Shown: positions 1-6,779 of the stretch, one piece after another
Layout: every line of letters starts with the position of its first letter
Numbering within the stretch: the first letter of the stretch is position 1
Virus record (IMG/VR): IMGVR_UViG_2693429713_000022
Location: 1-6,779 of that record
Source of the DNA: a virus
Taxonomy: Duplodnaviria; Heunggongvirae; Uroviricota; Caudoviricetes
Strand: one strand, 5' to 3'
DNA: 6,779 nucleotides
Notes under the pieces: generated by a model
Told to the model about the DNA's origin: nothing
The model's database searches: none
The model's input: the letters and a program-made list of their open reading frames with translations, nothing else
Program-made: the position numbers and the translations under genes

Positions 1-12
1 GGTTTGGGAGAA
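1..12. other. Inner half of a candidate Din-family crossover site (site A); core and outer arm would lie just upstream of the window
   Basis: GGTTTGGGAGAA is the exact reverse complement of the 12-bp arm TTCTCCCAAACC found in sites B and C. Only half the site is visible, so this is provisional. Confidence 0.45.
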
Positions 13-453
13 GCGGCAAAACGAAATGTGGGCAACGGGGAAAACCAAATCCCTGATATGTCTTTCTGGACGGTTACTGGTGGCAATGGAAATTTTGTGA
101 TTCGTCAACCTGACGGGCTAATCATTCAGATGGTTACTGTAAGTATAAGCGGTCCAGTGGCGATGAATGGAATGACTGATAATGCTTATGCCATTACAGG
201 TTCTAATAAGTCTTATATTGCCACAGCCACATTGCCCTTTGTATTTCCTAATAAGGTGCTGGGCGTTATCCCTCTGGTATCAACAACAGCTTATGGTGGT
301 GTATCCAGTAATATTACAGGTTCATACGCGACGGCGGTTTGTTCTTTTGCCGCTGTCAGGGGGAATAATACGATTGTGTTCAAAGTCGACAAACCACTGA
401 ATGCAGCCTTTCCTTCAGATACCAGCGTCTCAGCGTTAATCATTGGACGGTAA
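1..453 (+). CDS. Tail-fibre protein, C-terminal receptor-binding cassette (partial; 5' part of the gene lies upstream of the window); left copy of the inverted repeat
   Basis: Open frame from position 1 (GLGEAAKRNVG...ALIIGR) ending at TAA 451-453, followed 2 nt later by a Tfa-family gene, the usual tail-fibre/chaperone pairing. The same 149 aa are encoded on the minus strand at 2512-2958. Gly/Ser/Thr/Asn-rich composition typical of fibre distal domains. No start codon in the window. Confidence 0.8.
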   Translation, partial: GLGEAAKRNVGNGENQIPDMSFWTVTGGNGNFVIRQPDGLIIQMVTVSISGPVAMNGMTDNAYAITGSNKSYIATATLPFVFPNKVLGVIPLVSTTAYGGVSSNITGSYATAVCSFAAVRGNNTIVFKVDKPLNAAFPSDTSVSALIIGR

Positions 454-455
454 GA

Positions 456-899
456 ATGAACTCAGTATTCTTTTCACCCGCAAGTAAAAGTTTTTATCTG
501 CAAGAATTGTTTCCAGAATATGAGGATGCGGGAACGCTTCCTGATGATGTTATTGAAATTACCAGAGAAACATATGAGCAATTTCTTGGGCTGCATCCAG
601 AAGGGAAAGAAATTGGCGCTGACAGTTCAGGACGGCCAATATGGATTAATTCCCCGCCGCCTTCAAAAGAGGATGAGATGCTGGCGGCTGAAATGAAAAA
701 GATATCTTTGGTTTCAGAAGTCAATACCTACATCAATACCCATCAGTGGCCTGGCAAAGCTGCTATTGGTCGTCTGAAAGGTTACGAGCTGGAACAATAT
801 AATTTATGGCTGGATTATCTGGACGCACTGGAACTGGTTGATACCTCCAGTGCTCCAGATATTGAATGGCCTACGCCTCCGGTAGTTCAGGCCAGATGA
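456..899 (+). CDS. Tail-fibre assembly protein (Tfa family), 147 aa
   Basis: ATG at 456, 2 nt after the fibre stop. C-terminal motif [26 protein letters not shown] resembles the conserved Tfa/Mu-U-type C-terminus and is shared in pattern with the convergent Tfa gene ([28 protein letters not shown]). Its first 54 codons lie inside IR-L. Confidence 0.8.
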   Translation: MNSVFFSPASKSFYLQELFPEYEDAGTLPDDVIEITRETYEQFLGLHPEGKEIGADSSGRPIWINSPPPSKEDEMLAAEMKKISLVSEVNTYINTHQWPGKAAIGRLKGYELEQYNLWLDYLDALELVDTSSAPDIEWPTPPVVQAR

Positions 900-1476
900 C
901 ATCCGGCGCGGTGCTGGTATCTGTTGCAGTCACCGCGTCAATGTAATCCAGCACAGCGTTAAGCCGGGTTGTTTCTGCCTGCGTCAGCTTCCGCCCGGCC
1001 TGCAATTTCAGCTGAATCAGACTAATGGAAGCCATAGCAGCATCAATCAGTGACTGGCGCCGTACTTCTGCCGCGTCTACTGCGGCGTTATGCTGTGCCT
1101 CAGTATCGGTCACCCATTTCTCACCATCCCATTTATCGTATGACGTTAACGGGGCGATAGTGGTTGTATTTTCAGGGTAATCACCCGGAACTGTGATTTC
1201 TTTTGATTCTCCTGTTTCGGTGCTATAGACGATTTCACCGCGATGGTCTGGCACATATTCCCATGAGTTAAAATCTGCAGAACGGCAAATTGCATAACCA
1301 GCTTTATATGAGCCAGGAGCATCTAAACAGGAACATGCCGGGATACCAACACCCACAGCAAGATATTCAGTTGATGTGGAAATATATTCCCGTGTTTCAC
1401 CATCATAATTATAAACGGTAATGTCTCCGGCCTTTGTGGCGATGAGTTCATTATTTAATACAGCTTTACTTATCAT
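871..1476 (-). CDS. Tail-fibre assembly protein (Tfa family), 201 aa, partner of the 253-aa fibre gene
   Basis: Start ATG (minus strand) at 1474-1476 overlaps the TGA stop of the upstream fibre gene as ATGA (1473-1476), suggesting translational coupling. Conserved Tfa C-terminal motif. Its 3' end overlaps the convergent Tfa gene by 29 bp (871-899). Confidence 0.8.
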
Positions 1477-2234
1477 GCAGCCCTCACAATATAATTAAAG
1501 GCGATGTTACGGGAGCGGGTTTCAGATGCTGTGCGAACTGAGCGAGATGCGTCGAATGTCCAGTTATAAGCGCCATAACCCTCAATAATTTCGGCTTCCT
1601 TTAGACCTGTAGATAATACTTGCCCATGTTGACTAAATGGCCCTGAACTAAGTACGTCTCTAAAAAGCTGGGTACGCCCAAAAGAACCAACAATATTCTG
1701 AATTGCATCATTCTGTGCAGATAATAAGTTACGACCAGAGTCAATCCCGCGCCCATCATCCCAGCCACGAATAAATTCACCGCGTAAATCTGGTAATTTT
1801 AATGTTGGGTAAGCCTTTGCCAGATTTGGGTACTTTTCAGAAGAAAATACTGCTCCGTTACATTTTAGCCACCCCGTTGGCGGAGTGGCGGAAGGCCACG
1901 GAACAGGCACACCAACGGGTAATGCCGAACCTTCTCCCAAACCAAGGTTTTCGAGAGCCGTTTTCACCGTGCCATCAGATTTGATATCGCCAAACGGATT
2001 CTTGCGGCTTAACAGCAGCGCACGAAGCGCGGTAAGCAGCTGGTCATGCCGCCCCTTCTCCAGGCTGGCACCGGATGCCTCCACCACGCTGCAGAGTTCT
2101 TCCTGCAACATGTCAAAGTAGTCATCATCCAGATCGGTGGCAGGTGTGCCGGTCTGGGGGTTACCACGGGTAAAACCGTTCTTACCCGCGCCGAACTTAT
2201 CCTTCTGCGCGGTTTTCGTGTCTATACGATGCAT
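1473..2234 (-). CDS. Small tail-fibre protein, 253 aa, with N-terminal fibre-attachment-type motif and phage tail-collar-like domain
   Basis: GGAG ribosome-binding site (plus-strand CTCC 2241-2244) 6 nt upstream of ATG 2232-2234. N-terminus [21 protein letters not shown]...[20 protein letters not shown] resembles conserved tail-fibre N-termini of the Mu S / P2 H type. The segment [12 protein letters not shown]...YPNLAKAYP...[17 protein letters not shown] (about 1746-1901) matches the tail-collar signature as I remember it. Crossover site B lies inside the gene at codons about 93-101. Confidence 0.8.
1932..1957. other. Candidate Din-family (gix/hix/cix/pix-type) 26-bp crossover site B
   Basis: TTCTCCCAAACC-AA-GGTTTTCGAGAG: two 12-bp imperfect inverted arms (9 of 12 positions symmetric) around a 2-bp AA core with the AAACC/GGTTT inner motif. 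It matches the hixL sequence I recall (TTCTTGAAAACCAAGGTTTTTGATAA) at about 20 of 26 positions. It sits at the constant/variable junction of the fibre gene, encoding ...ENLGLGE... on the minus strand. Confidence 0.65.
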
Positions 2235-2257
2235 GGATTACTCCGGATATTTAAAAA

Positions 2258-2509
2258 TTACGTAGGTATGCGAAGGGCAGAGTTTGTTAAGCACACACTC
2301 GACAACGGTGTCGCCCCAGATACGCAGTGCGGAATCACAGGGATCACGCCAATTTCTTTCCCTTCTGGATGCAGCCCAAGAAATTGCTCATATGTTTCTC
2401 TGGTAATTTCAATAACATCATCAGGAAGCGTTCCCGCATCCTCATATTCTGGAAACAATTCTTGCAGATAAAAACTTTTACTTGCGGGTGAAAAGAATAC
2501 TGAGTTCAT
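2258..2509 (-). pseudogene. Truncated Tfa remnant: 54 N-terminal codons from IR-R fused to 29 unrelated codons
   Basis: The first 54 aa are identical to the Tfa gene at 456-617. After the inverted-repeat boundary (2347/2346) the frame continues into unrelated sequence ([29 protein letters not shown]) and stops at 2258-2260, 83 aa total versus 147 aa for the intact copy. Confidence 0.55.
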
Positions 2510-2964
2510 TCTTACCGTCCAATGATTAACGCTGAGACGCTGGTATCTGAAGGAAAGGCTGCATTCAGTGGTTTGTCGACTTTGAACACAATCGTATTAT
2601 TCCCCCTGACAGCGGCAAAAGAACAAACCGCCGTCGCGTATGAACCTGTAATATTACTGGATACACCACCATAAGCTGTTGTTGATACCAGAGGGATAAC
2701 GCCCAGCACCTTATTAGGAAATACAAAGGGCAATGTGGCTGTGGCAATATAAGACTTATTAGAACCTGTAATGGCATAAGCATTATCAGTCATTCCATTC
2801 ATCGCCACTGGACCGCTTATACTTACAGTAACCATCTGAATGATTAGCCCGTCAGGTTGACGAATCACAAAATTTCCATTGCCACCAGTAACCGTCCAGA
2901 AAGACATATCAGGGATTTGGTTTTCCCCGTTGCCCACATTTCGTTTTGCCGCTTCTCCCAAACC
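2347..2964. repeat. Inverted repeat, right copy (IR-R), partner of 1-618
   Basis: See IR-L. The outer end at 2964 is set by the window start (position 1 pairs with 2964) and coincides with the end of the 12-bp arm of crossover site C, so the repeat may end at the recombination site. Confidence 0.9.
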
Positions 2965-3006
2965 AACGTTTATGAAAATGCAGAAATAACGAGCAAATGG
3001 CATCAT
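2512..3006 (-). CDS. Tail-fibre C-terminal cassette, pin-proximal copy; apparently lacks an N-terminal constant part in this orientation (silent or fragment cassette)
   Basis: Encodes the same 149 aa as 1-453 on the minus strand. The ORF extends only 14 codons beyond crossover site C to an ATG at 3004-3006 (MMPFARYFCIFINV...) with no fibre-like N-terminal domain. This resembles the short fibre fragment gene next to pin in e14, as I recall it. Confidence 0.6.
   Translation of the reverse strand: MMPFARYFCIFINVGLGEAAKRNVGNGENQIPDMSFWTVTGGNGNFVIRQPDGLIIQMVTVSISGPVAMNGMTDNAYAITGSNKSYIATATLPFVFPNKVLGVIPLVSTTAYGGVSSNITGSYATAVCSFAAVRGNNTIVFKVDKPLNAAFPSDTSVSALIIGR
2953..2978. other. Candidate Din-family crossover site C, next to the invertase gene
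   Basis: TTCTCCCAAACC-AA-CGTTTATGAAAA: left arm and AA core identical to site B, right arm more degenerate. It lies 55 bp upstream of the invertase start, the position where gix/cix-type sites sit relative to gin/cin. On the minus strand it encodes ...INVGLGE... in the same frame as site B. Confidence 0.6.
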
Positions 3007-3032
3007 TCCTGCTTTTGTCAGGGAGATCTACC

Positions 3033-3587
3033 ATGCTTATTGGCTATGTACGTGTGTCAACAAATGACCAGAACACAGATCTACAACGTAATGCGCTGAA
3101 CTGTGCAGGATGCGAGCTGATTTTTGAAGACAAGATAAGCGGTACAAAGTCCGAAAGGCCGGGACTGAAAAAACTGCTCAGGACATTATCGGCAGGCGAT
3201 ACGCTGGTGGTCTGGAAACTGGACCGACTGGGGCGCAGTATGCGGCATCTTGTCGTGCTGGTGGAGGAGTTGCGCGAACGAGGCATCAACTTTCGTAGTC
3301 TGACGGATTCAATTGATACCAGTACCCCAATGGGGCGCTTTTTCTTTCATGTGATGGGGGCCCTGGCTGAAATGGAACGAGAACTGATTGTTGAACGAAC
3401 AAAAGCTGGACTGGAAGCTGCTCGCGCACAGGGACGAATTGGTGGACGTCGTCCCAAACTTACACCAGAACAATGGGCACAAGCCGGACGATTAATTGCA
3501 TCAGGAGTTCCGCGCCAGAAAGTTGCGATTATCTATGATGTTGGCGTATCGACTTTGTATCAGAGGTTTCCGGCAGGAGATAAATAA
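3033..3587 (+). CDS. pin: Serine DNA invertase of the Pin/Gin/Cin/Hin (Din) family, 184 aa
   Basis: N-terminus MLIGYVRVSTNDQNTDLQRNAL is the hallmark Din-invertase start, with the catalytic serine at residue 9 (codon 3057-3059). The rest is near-collinear with Gin/Cin as I remember them (GDTLVVWKLDRLGRSM, GRFFFHVMGALAEMERELI, and a C-terminal HTH region GVPRQKVAIIYDVGVSTLYQRF). GGGAG ribosome-binding site at 3021-3025, 7 nt before the ATG. The track ORF starts at 2997, but 3033 is the supported start. Family assignment is confident; the pin symbol is by context (e14-like neighbours), not proven orthology. Confidence 0.93.
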   Translation: MLIGYVRVSTNDQNTDLQRNALNCAGCELIFEDKISGTKSERPGLKKLLRTLSAGDTLVVWKLDRLGRSMRHLVVLVEELRERGINFRSLTDSIDTSTPMGRFFFHVMGALAEMERELIVERTKAGLEAARAQGRIGGRRPKLTPEQWAQAGRLIASGVPRQKVAIIYDVGVSTLYQRFPAGDK

Positions 3588-3785
3588 AGACACAGCTCGT
3601 CGAATTCAAGAACGTGTGAGCCAATCTCATGATGATTCATTATTTTCACATAGAGTCAATGACAAAAAACGGCTGCAAGGTAAACCACAACGATGGCTTT
3701 GTTAATTGATAGCGGTTTTGGTACTAAATGATACAAATTAAAATGAATATCCTAGTGAATTACAACAATTTCAGGAGGAAATAGT

Positions 3786-3998
3786 ATGCCAAGAAAAACG
3801 CTAGAAAATTTGGTAAATGTTGCACGTCAGACTCAGGAAATAGCGGATAAGAGAAGCCGTTTTTTCGGGTATCTTGAACAGCATGGCTTGAAGAGGAATG
3901 AGGATAGTGCTCACCTTTTTGCTATGCATTTACGGTTGCAACACAATGAAAGAGATAATCTTGTCCATGAACTGATGTCCGGATTACATCATAAATAG
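3786..3998 (+). CDS. Hypothetical small protein, 70 aa, basic and His-rich; function unknown
   Basis: Strong AGGAGG ribosome-binding site at 3773-3778, 7 nt before ATG 3786. AT-rich. Convergent with the two-gene operon. I recognise no family. Confidence 0.5.
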   Translation: MPRKTLENLVNVARQTQEIADKRSRFFGYLEQHGLKRNEDSAHLFAMHLRLQHNERDNLVHELMSGLHHK

Positions 3999-4032
3999 TG
4001 CATCATTCGAGCAAGAATATTATAAGACAATA

Positions 4033-4055
4033 AACCAGCCAAAAACTGGCTGGTT
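4033..4055. terminator. Candidate bidirectional intrinsic terminator between convergent genes
   Basis: Hairpin AACCAGCC(A)-loop-(T)GGCTGGTT with an 8-9 bp stem, flanked by T-rich sequence on the minus-strand side (TATTGTCTTATAAT) and a TTTTT run 10 nt away on the plus-strand side. Lies between the 70-aa gene stop (3998) and the 114-aa gene stop (4083). U tracts are imperfect. Confidence 0.5.
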
Positions 4056-4082
4056 GAACGTTAACTTTTTGAATTTAATCAA

Positions 4083-4427
4083 TTAACTTTGGTGTATGTC
4101 TTGGTAAGTCTCATCCGTCAGAGCCAATTTCATGCAAATATCATCGTTAAGACTGACAATATCTTCGATCAGTTTATTGATCTCGAAATCGTTAAGTTTT
4201 GATACTGTTGCTTGAACTCGCCCCTCATCGCCAGTGGCATCAAACTTAGTCAGTTCCTTACATAATTCATCGAACCTGCTTTGTAAGGCATTTGGAATAT
4301 CATCGGCTGTTTTAAGATGCCCAAGGCTAAAAACATACGAATTAATCAAGCGTTCTTGAATACTTCCATGGCCCGCAAGAGTAAGTACTGCAGTATGAAA
4401 TTTTTCATGTGCATACTTTAAGGACAT
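4083..4427 (-). CDS. Hypothetical protein, 114 aa, mildly acidic; second gene of the cargo operon
   Basis: GGAGA ribosome-binding site (plus-strand TCTCC 4434-4438) 6 nt before ATG 4425-4427. Lies 51 bp downstream of the 343-aa gene on the same strand. AT-rich. No recognisable motif. Confidence 0.6.
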   Translation of the reverse strand: MSLKYAHEKFHTAVLTLAGHGSIQERLINSYVFSLGHLKTADDIPNALQSRFDELCKELTKFDATGDEGRVQATVSKLNDFEINKLIEDIVSLNDDICMKLALTDETYQDIHQS

Positions 4428-4478
4428 ATCTGGTCTCCGTGACTTATAACCTCAACCGACATAAATGGGGTTAAGTGA

Positions 4479-5510
4479 TTATTCTGAAACAATAGTGTTG
4501 AACTGACCTATAGAAACAGCACCCTTTTCAATTACCTCTAAGTAACTGATTTTAATATGAGAGTTGTTTGACAAAGCGTCAACAATAGCTGTCAACTCAT
4601 CTTGGGTGATAACATCAGCTGAAGCTTTGATTGTGAAGCATTCGTCATTAGAGACCCTAACAACGTTAATATTAATATCCTGATTTGTTGGCCCTGTTCT
4701 GGTTACACCTTTGATGGAAAATATATCAGTTCGTTCTTTACGTTCTCTATCTACAGATTGTCGGCTGTTGTAGGTATTTAGGTCTTGTCGTGTTAGTTTC
4801 TCATTTCCTAAAGTCACGGTTTCGACAGTAGGATCAGCAGCTAATTGCTTCACTAAAGCACTTTTACCTGCTTGTCCGTGACTAGTAACTTTATCGCTAA
4901 TCGCTGATTTCCCATAGATTTTATAATCTAATGTTGCTTCTATGGCTTTGTTTATGCCATCGGATGTGGTTTTTGCAATTTCAACCTGCCGATCAGTTGC
5001 ATGTCTTTCTGTTACGGCATTTTCTGAAATGTAGTGATAACCACATGTGCTGGCCGCGCCAACCATTGTGATTATAACAAGCATTTTCTGCCAGCCGTTC
5101 AGTCCAGACATAGTATCTCGCAAAAAATCAGTTACTGCGTTGATGATCTTGTCAGTGGTGCCTTCCGCATCACTAGAACCTTCGCTAATTTTAAAATTTA
5201 TATCAAGTCGTTGCTTGTCTTCATTAGTCAAGCGTTGAAGATTCTGCGATCCGTATCGTATGGTTGCAAACGCCCGCTGTATCTCCTCGTTGAGCATTGA
5301 CATACCAAACAACATTGCTGATGTAATTGATGAATGATACCGCTCTCCTTTTACATTTATGTCTAAGGATGGCCAGCCTGCAAACTTTACGTTAGGGAAA
5401 ATAAACTCTTTAGAATCAAGCCCCTCTCGGGCTTTCATTTCTTCCAGAAAGTTTAGAAAATCATCTTCACTACGGATCAGAAAATCAATCGAATCCACAG
5501 TAGCTTCCAT
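4479..5510 (-). CDS. Hypothetical protein, 343 aa, with a central hydrophobic (possible membrane) segment; first gene of the cargo operon
   Basis: Long ORF in an AT-rich region. AAGGA ribosome-binding site (plus-strand TCCTT 5518-5522) 7 nt before ATG 5508-5510. Hydrophobic stretch GWQKMLVIITMVGAASTCGYHYI at about residues 139-161 (roughly 5028-5096). No catalytic motif I can name. Confidence 0.75.
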   Translation of the reverse strand: MEATVDSIDFLIRSEDDFLNFLEEMKAREGLDSKEFIFPNVKFAGWPSLDINVKGERYHSSITSAMLFGMSMLNEEIQRAFATIRYGSQNLQRLTNEDKQRLDINFKISEGSSDAEGTTDKIINAVTDFLRDTMSGLNGWQKMLVIITMVGAASTCGYHYISENAVTERHATDRQVEIAKTTSDGINKAIEATLDYKIYGKSAISDKVTSHGQAGKSALVKQLAADPTVETVTLGNEKLTRQDLNTYNSRQSVDRERKERTDIFSIKGVTRTGPTNQDININVVRVSNDECFTIKASADVITQDELTAIVDALSNNSHIKISYLEVIEKGAVSIGQFNTIVSE

Positions 5511-5560
5511 ATGAATATCCTTATTAAATTCTCATTCGGTTACTGTTTATTGTTGACTGA

Positions 5561-5589
5561 TCAATAAAAAAGCCCGCAATTTGCGGGCT
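5561..5589 (-). terminator. Rho-independent terminator on the minus strand, downstream of ssrA and directly upstream of the cargo operon
   Basis: Minus strand reads GCCCGCAA-ATT-TTGCGGGC (stem from 5571-5589) followed by TTTTTTATTGA (5570-5561). Confidence 0.65.
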
Positions 5590-5719
5590 TCTTTCACACT
5601 TGAGAGCCGCGGCTCCTTTGCGTATCCTTTTTTGTCTCCTCACCGTCTGGTCGGTGTCCTGCTGAGACTGCTAACTTCCTGTTTTTGTTGGTGTTGTCCT
5701 TACACCGTCCAATCATGAT

Positions 5720-6082
5720 TGGTGGAGCTGGCGGGAGTTGAACCCGCGTCCGAAATTCCTACATCCTCGGTACTACATGCTTAGTCAGTCTTTACATTCG
5801 CTTGCCAGCTGCGGACGGACACGCCACTAACAAACTAGCCTGATTAAGTTTTAACGCTTCAACCCCAGGCAGGGCTTCCACGCGATCTCTTTTGGGTTTG
5901 ACCTCTCTTGATCCCCGTCCTAAGAGCGGAGGCTAGGGAGAGAGGGCTCTAAGCAGGTTATTAAGCTGCTAAAGCGTAGTTTTCGTCGTTTGCGACTATT
6001 TTTTGCGGCTTTTTACGAGGCCAACCGCCCCTCGGCATGCACCTTGGGTTTCGCAAATCCCGTCGAATCCAGAATCAGCCCC
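5720..6082 (-). ncRNA. ssrA: tmRNA (SsrA), 363 nt
   Basis: Reverse complement of 6059-6082 is GGGGCTGATTCTGGATTCGACGGG (tmRNA 5' end) and of 5720-5760 ends ...GGGTTCAACTCCCGCCAGCTCCACCA (tRNA-like 3' end with CCA). The tag reading frame GCAAACGACGAAAACTACGCTTTAGCAGCTTAA (ANDENYALAA-stop) is the reverse complement of 5961-5993. Matches the E. coli-type tmRNA as I remember it along its length. Confidence 0.95.
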
Positions 6083-6096
6083 AATGTGTAAAGGTA

Positions 6097-6102
6097 AGTA
6101 TA
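6097..6102 (-). promoter_or_regulatory. Possible -10 element (TATACT) of the ssrA promoter
   Basis: TATACT on the minus strand about 14 nt upstream of the mature tmRNA 5' end, consistent with a short processed leader. I found no convincing -35, so this is tentative. Confidence 0.3.
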
Positions 6103-6296
6103 CCAGATTTATGAGCGCCATGACCAGCCTCAATGGCGTTATCGTTAAAGATTTAGCACCCATGTAGCCTGATTTTTATTCGATTAAGCAATGGGATGGC
6201 AACATTTGTGTCGGATGTGATAGCCAATAAGATGTTGATTCGCGCCGCCGGAGAGGGAGGCGCGGTGAGGAACTGGTCAATAATTGGAGTGCAGGT

Positions 6297-6779
6297 TTAA
6301 CGGTGGGCGTTTTTCATGATACGTGCTTTATCCACCTGCCATTCGCGTTCTTTGATATCTGAACGTTTATCGTGCTGTTTTTTACCTTTGGCGACGCCGA
6401 TTTTCACTTTGCACCAGGCATTTTTCCAGTACAGGGAGAGCGCCACTACGGTATAGCCTTCTCGATTGACGCGACCGTACAATGAGTCCAGTTCGCGCTG
6501 GTTGAGAAGTAACTTGCGGGTACGGGTAGGATCGCACACCACATGCGTGGAGGCCACGGCCATTGGCGTGATGTTAGCGCCAAACAGAAATGCCTCTCCG
6601 TCACGCAGAAGGACGTAGCTGTCGCTGATATTGGCTTTTCCTGCGCGCAGGGATTTAACCTCCCAGCCTTGCAGGGCAAGTCCCGCTTCGAACTCTTCTT
6701 CGATAAAGTATTCGTGACGGGCGCGCTTGTTAAGCGCGATGGTCGCTGAACCAGGTTTATGTGCTTTTTTCTTCGTCAT
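6297..6779 (-). CDS. smpB: SsrA-binding protein SmpB, 160 aa
   Basis: Full-length [75 protein letters not shown]... with the start codon at the last three bases of the window (6777-6779). Directly upstream of ssrA on the same strand, the canonical smpB-ssrA arrangement. Confidence 0.95.

Follow-up and report, generated by a model that had tools for sequence, protein, structure and literature searches.

Which function is served by the two AT-rich genes that separate a site-specific invertase from ssrA in a stretch of Escherichia coli DNA, and do the two form a single system? The stretch in question (the window, 6,779 nt, positions 1 to 6,779 of IMG/VR record IMGVR_UViG_2693429713_000022, filed under Caudoviricetes) is E. 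coli chromosomal DNA in which smpB and ssrA are followed by integrated phage cargo and tail-fiber genes. A preliminary description, made from the sequence alone, read the locus as an operon of two co-oriented genes of 343 and 114 amino acids (here termed A and B), and listed antiphage defense, superinfection exclusion and a toxin-immunity pair as candidate functions. We find that A is an autonomous moron that is placed mostly right behind the prophage repressor gene cI, or beside attachment (att) sites and tail-fiber genes, and that A-B travels as a cassette in one young lineage, B lying outside the conserved design of the family. We propose, with confidence evenly balanced, that A is made in the lysogen, has its place in the inner membrane and hinders superinfecting phages at the envelope, with B as an accessory.

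Homologs of A lie behind the prophage repressor and in other moron slots

The gene order cI, A, N was found in at least six independent lambdoid phages and prophages, and is the position that rexA-rexB holds in phage lambda. A follows cI upstream of N in Yersinia (L005/L006; L numbers are our labels for the loci that were compared), in two groups of metagenomic lambdoid contigs (L013/14 and L015-17), in the isolated phage phi458 (46% identity) and in phages PhiR12_1 to _5 (26% identity), in which it is annotated as a "T2SS GspM containing protein". It lies behind a helix-turn-helix (HTH) repressor in Photorhabdus (L030). The interval between cI and N is known as a mosaic hotspot in which rexAB and bstA are found, and genes in it presumably draw on the strong transcription from the repressor promoter (PMC8585504). 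It is chiefly this synteny that leads us to read A as a protein that would be expressed in the lysogen and directed at other phages. A role of A in defense or exclusion is plausible, and the cI-adjacent homologs lend it firmer contextual support than the sequence alone had given.

Other homologs stand at prophage ends and near tail genes. A is the first gene past an att site at ssrA in Mangrovibacter (L029, 81% identity), where tail-fiber genes come next and B, the invertase gene pin and a small gene of 70 codons that accompanies B in the window are lacking, and it is likewise the first gene past an att site at tRNA-Pro in Enterobacter and Serratia (L008-10, L031). A third att-proximal placement of this kind is between icd and the integrase gene (int) in Serratia and Scandinavium (L024/25, L034). 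A is also located between DinI and a pin-like invertase with tail fibers in Citrobacter (L032), beside tail fibers in Xenorhabdus (L026), next to interchangeable islands in Cronobacter (L002-4), and inside a siphovirus tail operon in Klebsiella (L022/L023, 5001-6577; 36% identity). In all, homologs of A occupy at least five kinds of slot, and tblastn found B and the 70-codon gene in none of the loci listed above.

Two distant homologs (each ∼30% identity) have neighbors of another sort. In Pseudoalteromonas sp. P1-9 (L035, 3989-7773) A adjoins a gene for a 679-residue NERD-domain protein, 2.4 kb from the tmRNA gene, and in Pseudomonas putida (L036, 3974-5887) it adjoins a gene for an HNH-endonuclease protein; both neighborhoods look like defense islands.

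A represents a large family of predicted bitopic membrane proteins

The preliminary description had recognized no known family in either protein, and database searches agreed with it. A matched nothing in Pfam, NCBIfam or PADLOC, and its sole family match, in a PHROGs scan, was phrog_6191 (E 7e-38), a group of unknown function. In PADLOC-DB v2.0.0 (2023), which holds models up to that release, A, B and the 70-residue protein had no match at E≤1. A word-index search with A returned 76 clusters from Enterobacterales, at 36 to 82% identity apart from its own cluster and all annotated as hypothetical, and an exhaustive profile search of 1.84 billion representatives returned 840 clusters (defined at 50% identity) at E≤1e-3 and 494 at E≤1e-10. 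With hundreds of homologs, A is therefore a real gene; its C-terminus has a ratio of nonsynonymous to synonymous substitution rates (dN/dS) of 0.07. Family members are nearly all 310 to 380 residues long and share one conserved architecture with no fusions. The clusters extend across the Gammaproteobacteria; the species representatives, of which the search reached 10, include Mangrovibacter, Photorhabdus, Serratia, Citrobacter, Scandinavium, Pseudoalteromonas and Pseudomonas putida, and fold-level look-alikes occur in a Leptospira phage. Scanning 112 diverse members against Pfam and PADLOC assigned no family and gave scattered chance matches only (best PADLOC E 4e-4, no model being matched by more than one member). 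Sequence and profile searches of the PDB found no relative of A; weak matches to the membrane anchors of MotB, Tom20 and PBP5 were rejected as reflecting transmembrane composition only.

An AlphaFold2 (AF2) model of A, built from 37 sequences with a mean predicted local distance difference test score (pLDDT) of 76.7, comprises the four parts given in Table 1. A fold search identified the C-terminal domain as a five-stranded β-barrel with an oligonucleotide/oligosaccharide-binding (OB) fold, whose structural neighbors include the metal- and glycan-binding SilF and AB5 B subunits. The N-terminal domain matched nothing in fold searches with the model. It is the most conserved part of the protein (F-x-G-W-P, G55, L94, D103 and G111-S112), and in the family alignment this domain holds no conserved constellation of His, Cys, Lys or Glu of the enzyme type. 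In 111 of the 112 members, which are 15 to 46% identical, one shared alignment position holds the most hydrophobic 19-mer; its median Kyte-Doolittle (KD) score is 1.73, it reaches at least 1.6 in 77/112, and a second such segment is present in one member. Given this single conserved hydrophobic position, the family is best described as putative bitopic membrane proteins. Because the N terminus is acidic and devoid of a signal peptide, and because export of a 135-residue N-terminal domain would be unusual, we infer an N-in/C-out topology, in which the N-terminal domain would be cytoplasmic and the coil and OB module periplasmic.

B is confined to one lineage

Positions 3600 to 5720 of the window are present at ≥99% identity in 46 of 5,426 complete E. 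coli genomes, in which A, B and the 70-codon gene are annotated as hypothetical (WP_021530618.1, WP_000054185.1 and WP_001137529.1). B encodes an acidic protein (isoelectric point (pI) 4.9) that is predicted to be all-helical, with no hydrophobic segment; its AF2 model (pLDDT 48, helices only) is unusable. The word-index search placed B in only 6 clusters, none below 84% identity where the sequences overlap, versus at least 840 clusters for A, and tblastn of B against 50,697 phage records found no match; very distant relatives would escape both searches. Nothing significant was found for B in Pfam, NCBIfam, PHROGs or PADLOC, and neither A nor B matched a toxin or antitoxin family there. Compared with an 84%-identical homolog, B shows 24 synonymous and 17 nonsynonymous differences (dN/dS 0.15), so it is a real gene kept by purifying selection.

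B accompanies only those copies of A that are at least 97% identical, namely in the 46 genomes and at two further loci, L019 and L018. The metagenomic copy L019 has frameshifts in both genes. Contig L018 begins within A, and its 3′ part of A, B and the terminator match the window at 87% nucleotide identity; it provides a second context, in which a YedK/SRAP-like gene follows the block in place of the 70-codon gene and pin. Comparative genomics had been suggested as a check on whether the pair always co-occurs, and it does not: by tblastn, B is absent at every locus with an A homolog of 82% identity or less. Judged from these sequences, we read B as a lineage-specific accessory, which may be a modulator or specificity factor or a hitch-hiking moron, and not as a required partner of A.

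The block is att-proximal cargo of a temperate phage integrated in ssrA

The block at 3588-5719 is att-proximal cargo of an e14/LLS-like temperate phage, mostly a remnant, integrated in the 3′ end of ssrA. The att core common to ssrA and the phage attachment site (attP) is the last ∼38 nt of ssrA (about 5720-5757). An E. coli contig that carries the attP form (L028) is identical to the window from TTTCGGA..CGGGTTCAACTCCCGCCAGCTCCACCA onward, that is, from the ssrA core, and the left boundary of the element therefore lies inside ssrA. The order in L028 is xis-like genes, int, two genes, the 3′ fragment of ssrA, the terminator, A, B, pin, tail fibers and a Mu/P2-type baseplate; A and B are thus the first genes past attP, on the side away from int. 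Positions 5562-5719 of the window are 100% identical in L028, and the 157 bp past the CCA end of ssrA (5563-5720), terminator included, are 89% identical to the attP flank of phage LLS, which has the order tail fiber, invertible segment, Fin invertase, six small genes, attP (with a piece of tmRNA) and int.

Several of the 46 genomes keep only a short remnant that consists of ymfQ, tail-fiber genes, pinE, the 70-codon gene, B and A. This module is colinear with K-12 e14, in which mcrA and the prophage end come after pinE, and the parallel that the preliminary description drew with mcrA next to pin therefore holds for the slot. The same slot contains other, unrelated genes in LLS, Ayreon and e14, and A and B are found in none of them. 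Together with the attP-form contig, this bears out the view that A-B was acquired horizontally as cargo and occupies a slot of variable content that lies between the invertase and ssrA, and answers the suggestion that variability of the slot be checked between related prophages. In the variable content of its slot among related phages, its deviating base composition and its hairpins on both sides, the unit has features of a moron.

Two further records were noted. NZ_CP148395.1, a 2,637-bp record labeled as a plasmid, holds B and the 70-codon gene; the search with A gave a single plasmid-borne place, so this record most likely holds A as well. Rather than a replicon, it is probably an artifact of assembly or an excised or misassembled fragment. 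At L001 (6463-7782; NZ_CP070071.1, 119342-120661) an integrase gene has as its neighbor a gene for a SecB-like chaperone, preceded by two small genes, a group that could be a toxin-antitoxin-chaperone (TAC) module; P2-like tail genes and regulatory genes like those of e14/CPS-53 are found in the same mosaic prophage region.

Gene structure and possible expression of A and B

The features of the window are listed in Table 1. The two open reading frames (ORFs) with their spacing and separate ribosome-binding sites are as first described, the ATG standing 7 nt beyond the Shine-Dalgarno motif in both genes. The unit is also more AT-rich than its flanks, as had been claimed: A-B has a G+C content of 39.4% (0.34 at third codon positions, GC3), compared with 49.6% for pin, 52.9% for ssrA, 51.6% for smpB and 46.2% for the tail-fiber region. 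The AT-rich block as a whole (3588-5561, 38.4% G+C) is wider than first described and takes in the 70-codon gene. A scan of the whole window against Rfam found no RNA family besides tmRNA.

Table 1. Features of the window, with positions, strand and the basis of each assignment.
Feature	Position (nt)	Strand	Basis or remark
smpB	6297-6779	minus	ORF list
ssrA (tmRNA)	5720-6082	minus	ARAGORN; Rfam RF00023, 295.8 bits
Phage-derived DNA with strong intrinsic terminator, directly 3′ of ssrA	5562-5719	minus	Identity to attP flanks; fold
Short region upstream of gene A	5511-5561	minus	Holds Shine-Dalgarno AAGGA, 5518-5522
Gene A, 343 aa	4479-5510	minus	ORF list
A, N-terminal α/β domain, residues ∼7-135	5106-5492	minus	AF2
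A, single hydrophobic helix, residues ∼139-161	5028-5096	minus	Hydropathy; AF2 helix 139-153, low-confidence linker after it
A, helical hairpin, residues 175-224		minus	AF2
A, C-terminal β domain, OB fold, residues ∼229-340	4491-4826	minus	AF2, fold search; pLDDT about 86-94 over 261-340
A-B spacer, 51 bp	4428-4478	minus	Holds Shine-Dalgarno GGAG, 4435-4438
Gene B, 114 aa	4083-4427	minus	ORF list
GC-rich hairpin between convergent gene B and 70-codon gene	4033-4055	both	Fold
Gene for 70-aa basic protein (pI 9.4), Shine-Dalgarno AGGAGG	3786-3998	plus	ORF list, sequence
pin-type serine invertase	3033-3587	plus	Pfam Resolvase 1.8e-51 and HTH_7; annotated pinE in identical genomes; annotated start 3033, mechanical ORF begins at 2997
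Invertible tail-fiber cassettes	1-2990		Window sequence

Both hairpins said to bracket the unit were recovered by folding. The upstream terminator has a stem at ∼5566-5594 and a U-run to 5562, followed by UUUUUUAUU; its folding free energy is -19.3 kcal/mol (z -4.7), with 0/200 shuffled sequences equally stable. It is missing from the list of a consensus scan, yet the fold is unambiguous, and it should end the ssrA transcript in a lysogen. For the downstream hairpin the minus strand gives -15.2 (z -4.2) and the plus strand -16.2 (z -5.5); because it is placed between the convergent B and 70-codon genes, it is likely a bidirectional terminator. By contrast with these, the A-B spacer folds no better than shuffled sequences (z -0.07) and holds no terminator-like structure, which makes cotranscription plausible, and A and B are likely cotranscribed. 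A promoter scan between the terminator and A found no σ70-like promoter at ≥9/12 matches. The terminator is situated 52 bp ahead of the start of A, and in a lysogen the very highly transcribed ssrA reads into it. Low-level read-through from ssrA could make expression of A-B dependent on integration, and expression of A in this position could stem from such read-through or from a weak promoter.

Invertible tail-fiber cassettes and an inversion that reaches into B

In L028 a 1.23-kb segment with pin and the 70-codon gene is inverted relative to the window (L028 2998-4566 equals window 5755-4187 and L028 4560-5788 equals window 2965-4193 by BLAST). The invertase crossover site TTCTCCCAAACCAACGTTT (2953-2971) forms one breakpoint, and a quasi-site within gene B, CAAAACTTAACGATTT, forms the other (breakpoint 4187-4193, site about 4187-4200). 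The inversion truncates B and creates a fused protein, P0081, whose tail derives from the antisense of the region upstream of pin, and A is left intact. The event looks like Pin acting on a secondary site.

The window also contains a perfect (100%) inverted repeat of 618 nt, at 1-618 and 2347-2964, around a 1.7-kb segment; it duplicates the C-terminus of the tail fiber and the start of the tail-fiber assembly gene. The crossover site (19-20 nt) is present as two direct copies, at 1932-1950 and 2953-2971, where chance would predict 0. The tail-fiber region is invertible and multi-cassette, and its arrangement varies among the genomes with this locus.

The 70-codon gene is convergent with B and completes the AT-rich cargo block as its third gene. 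It is present in the same 46 complete genomes, its product has near-identical homologs only, one of them labeled Salmonella Derby, and no family match was found for it in Pfam, NCBIfam, PADLOC or PHROGs.

Comparison with known exclusion and defense systems

Most relatives of A resemble lambda RexA/RexB in occupying the same slot, behind cI and before N, where they are presumably transcribed with the repressor in lysogens, and in the involvement of a membrane component. However, Rex is a two-gene system composed of a soluble sensor and a protein with four transmembrane helices, whereas A homologs are single genes in that slot and A is predicted to be one bitopic protein; the A of the window, moreover, adjoins attP and not cI. 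The e14 gene mcrA shares the slot of A in the colinear module of ymfQ, tail-fiber and assembly genes, pinE, cargo and prophage end, but McrA is a soluble HNH-type (Type IV) restriction enzyme unrelated to A, and the likeness is positional only.

BstA is soluble and carries a DNA-binding domain of the KilA-N type, unlike A, which has a predicted transmembrane helix and no KilA-N-type domain. What the two have in common is a position behind the repressor, and BstA offers a precedent for reading such synteny as a signal of defense. In diverse Gram-negative bacteria a stand-alone defense gene encodes it, with a conserved position immediately after the repressor gene of the prophage (PMC8585504), and the same source localizes it to sites of phage DNA replication.

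P22 SieA and HK97 gp15 are, as is predicted for A, prophage-encoded single-gene inner-membrane proteins without enzymatic motifs. SieA is modeled to interfere with the periplasmic and membrane conduit for DNA delivery (PMC10883804). No homology to either was detected for A (phrog_6191 was the only match in PHROGs), and A is larger and differs in having one predicted transmembrane helix that separates two soluble domains of considerable size.

SNIPE (PD-lambda-1) is a membrane-anchored nuclease that cleaves DNA during injection, and an example of how membrane localization can be the basis of self/non-self discrimination; it combines an N-terminal transmembrane helix with a cytoplasmic DUF4041 and a GIY-YIG (T5orf172) nuclease (PMC13190303). 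The likeness to A is that of a single membrane-anchored protein proposed to act at phage genome entry. We considered and rejected the identity of A with SNIPE: neither A nor its 112 relatives has a Pfam domain, and the transmembrane helix is at ∼139-161 and not N-terminal.

Proposed role of A and alternatives

In the mechanism that we consider most likely, A would be expressed in the lysogen and inserted into the inner membrane, where its periplasmic coil and OB module would obstruct or bind the incoming genome-delivery apparatus, resulting in superinfection exclusion like that exerted by SieA or HK97 gp15. B would be a small acidic helical cytoplasmic protein cotranscribed with A. Obstruction of entry is favored because A has no enzymatic signature and has a probable periplasmic binding module, and by analogy with P22 SieA.

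Several observations weigh against this proposal. No published phenotype or description of the A family was found in searches with the RefSeq accessions, the PHROG identifier and topical terms, and A matches no PHROG annotated as exclusion and, with its 112 relatives, no PADLOC defense model. Despite the shared slot, hhalign of the 112-member A profile gave probabilities of 0.4% and 0.2% for RexA and RexB, respectively, and homology to Rex was rejected. The hydrophobic segment of the A protein studied here is only moderately hydrophobic (KD 1.41), and Lys and Arg residues flank the helix nearly equally (2.3 versus 2.7), leaving the positive-inside rule uninformative on topology. OB folds are generic. 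In Klebsiella, A and a divergent 157-codon gene are inserted in a late tail operon, after the tail-tube/chaperone genes and before the tape-measure gene, where a moron is not usually found. Finally, the A of the window lies behind a strong terminator with no recognizable promoter, and its expression there is only presumed.

The main rival is that A is an abortive-infection (Abi) protein, whose transmembrane helix would oligomerize once infection is sensed and permeabilize or depolarize the membrane, Rex-like, killing the infected cell. A occupies the slot of rexAB and bstA, both of which are Abi systems (PMC8585504). Its transmembrane segment is rich in Gly, Ala, Ser and Thr, favoring helix packing, and the N-terminal domain is the most conserved part, as expected of an effector or oligomerization module. 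However, homology to RexA/RexB or to the PADLOC Abi models is lacking, and a single helix of only moderate hydrophobicity gives little ground for assuming a pore; we consider this mechanism unlikely, if a serious contender.

A could instead be a lysogenic-conversion factor unrelated to phage, acting in envelope homeostasis, stress tolerance, adhesion or virulence in the way of lambda bor and lom. A predicted membrane protein with a probable periplasmic OB domain, the neighbors of which include SilF and AB5 B subunits, would suit such a role; morons at prophage ends often encode such factors, and DinI-like genes adjoin A at several loci. Yet A is found predominantly in the immunity region behind cI (six independent cases), classically a place of exclusion and Abi genes, and A is phage-borne in hosts of varied niches (Yersinia, Photorhabdus, Pseudoalteromonas and Pseudomonas), which speaks against a niche-specific host trait. 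This makes a conversion factor improbable.

A role in the phage's own cycle would have A influence the lysis-lysogeny switch or induction through transmembrane signaling from the periplasm to its cytoplasmic domain. A adjoins cI, and a predicted bitopic architecture with a conserved cytoplasmic domain resembles that of transmembrane signaling proteins; RexA has also been reported to bias the lambda switch independently of RexB (PMC11077077). However, A is kept in grounded remnants that lack regulatory and lytic genes, for example in strain CD45, and also occurs at att ends and next to tail fibers, well away from the immunity region, which better fits a portable, host-directed moron. We regard a switch function as distinctly improbable.

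That A and B constitute a toxin-antitoxin or toxin-immunity pair, as the preliminary description had allowed, is very improbable. The genes are adjacent, co-oriented, tightly spaced and likely cotranscribed, one partner is small and acidic, and both are present in 46/46 complete E. coli genomes with either. These genomes, however, share a single allele at ≥99% identity, and their co-occurrence has no independent weight. An obligate two-gene system is contradicted by A without B everywhere outside the closest lineage, in over 12 contexts that are independent of one another (the same ssrA slot, with A at 81% identity, is among them), and by L028, in which A is intact and B truncated and fused; no toxin or antitoxin family was matched. 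It is scarcely credible that A and B are decaying, functionless remnants of a dead prophage, a view to which the short remnants in many of the 46 genomes, the frameshifts in L019 and the absence of a visible promoter could point, but which is at odds with intact ORFs at ≥99% identity in 46 genomes from diverse hosts, with purifying selection on both genes (dN/dS 0.07 for the C-terminus of A and 0.15 for B) and with an attP-form copy that has the same genes together with int and baseplate genes.

Significance of the A family

What is new here is the protein family; what is familiar is its role as a prophage accessory gene in exclusion hotspots. Genes behind the prophage repressor or at prophage ends have repeatedly proved to be exclusion or defense genes (rexAB, bstA, sieA and mcrA), and a large family with no entry in Pfam, NCBIfam or PADLOC fills such slots in many temperate phages of the Enterobacterales and beyond. 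Envelope-level exclusion by A is directly testable, because isolated culturable coliphages (phi458 and PhiR12_1 to _5) carry the family. More tentatively, and as a possibility to which we would give somewhat less than even weight, the A family may be a widespread class of single-protein antiphage systems at the envelope, in which the coil and OB module would detect or obstruct the delivery machinery and the cytoplasmic domain would execute exclusion, with A as an alternative occupant of the rexAB slot and B as a lineage-specific modulator. Should A have no phage phenotype, it would be one more conserved prophage gene of unknown function. If membrane exclusion without an enzymatic domain is true of A, it would be a mechanistically distinct single-protein system beside the few understood members of this class (SieA, HK97 gp15, Imm/Sp and, more recently, SNIPE), and would affect the prediction of phage host range in lysogens of E. 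coli, Klebsiella, Enterobacter and Serratia.

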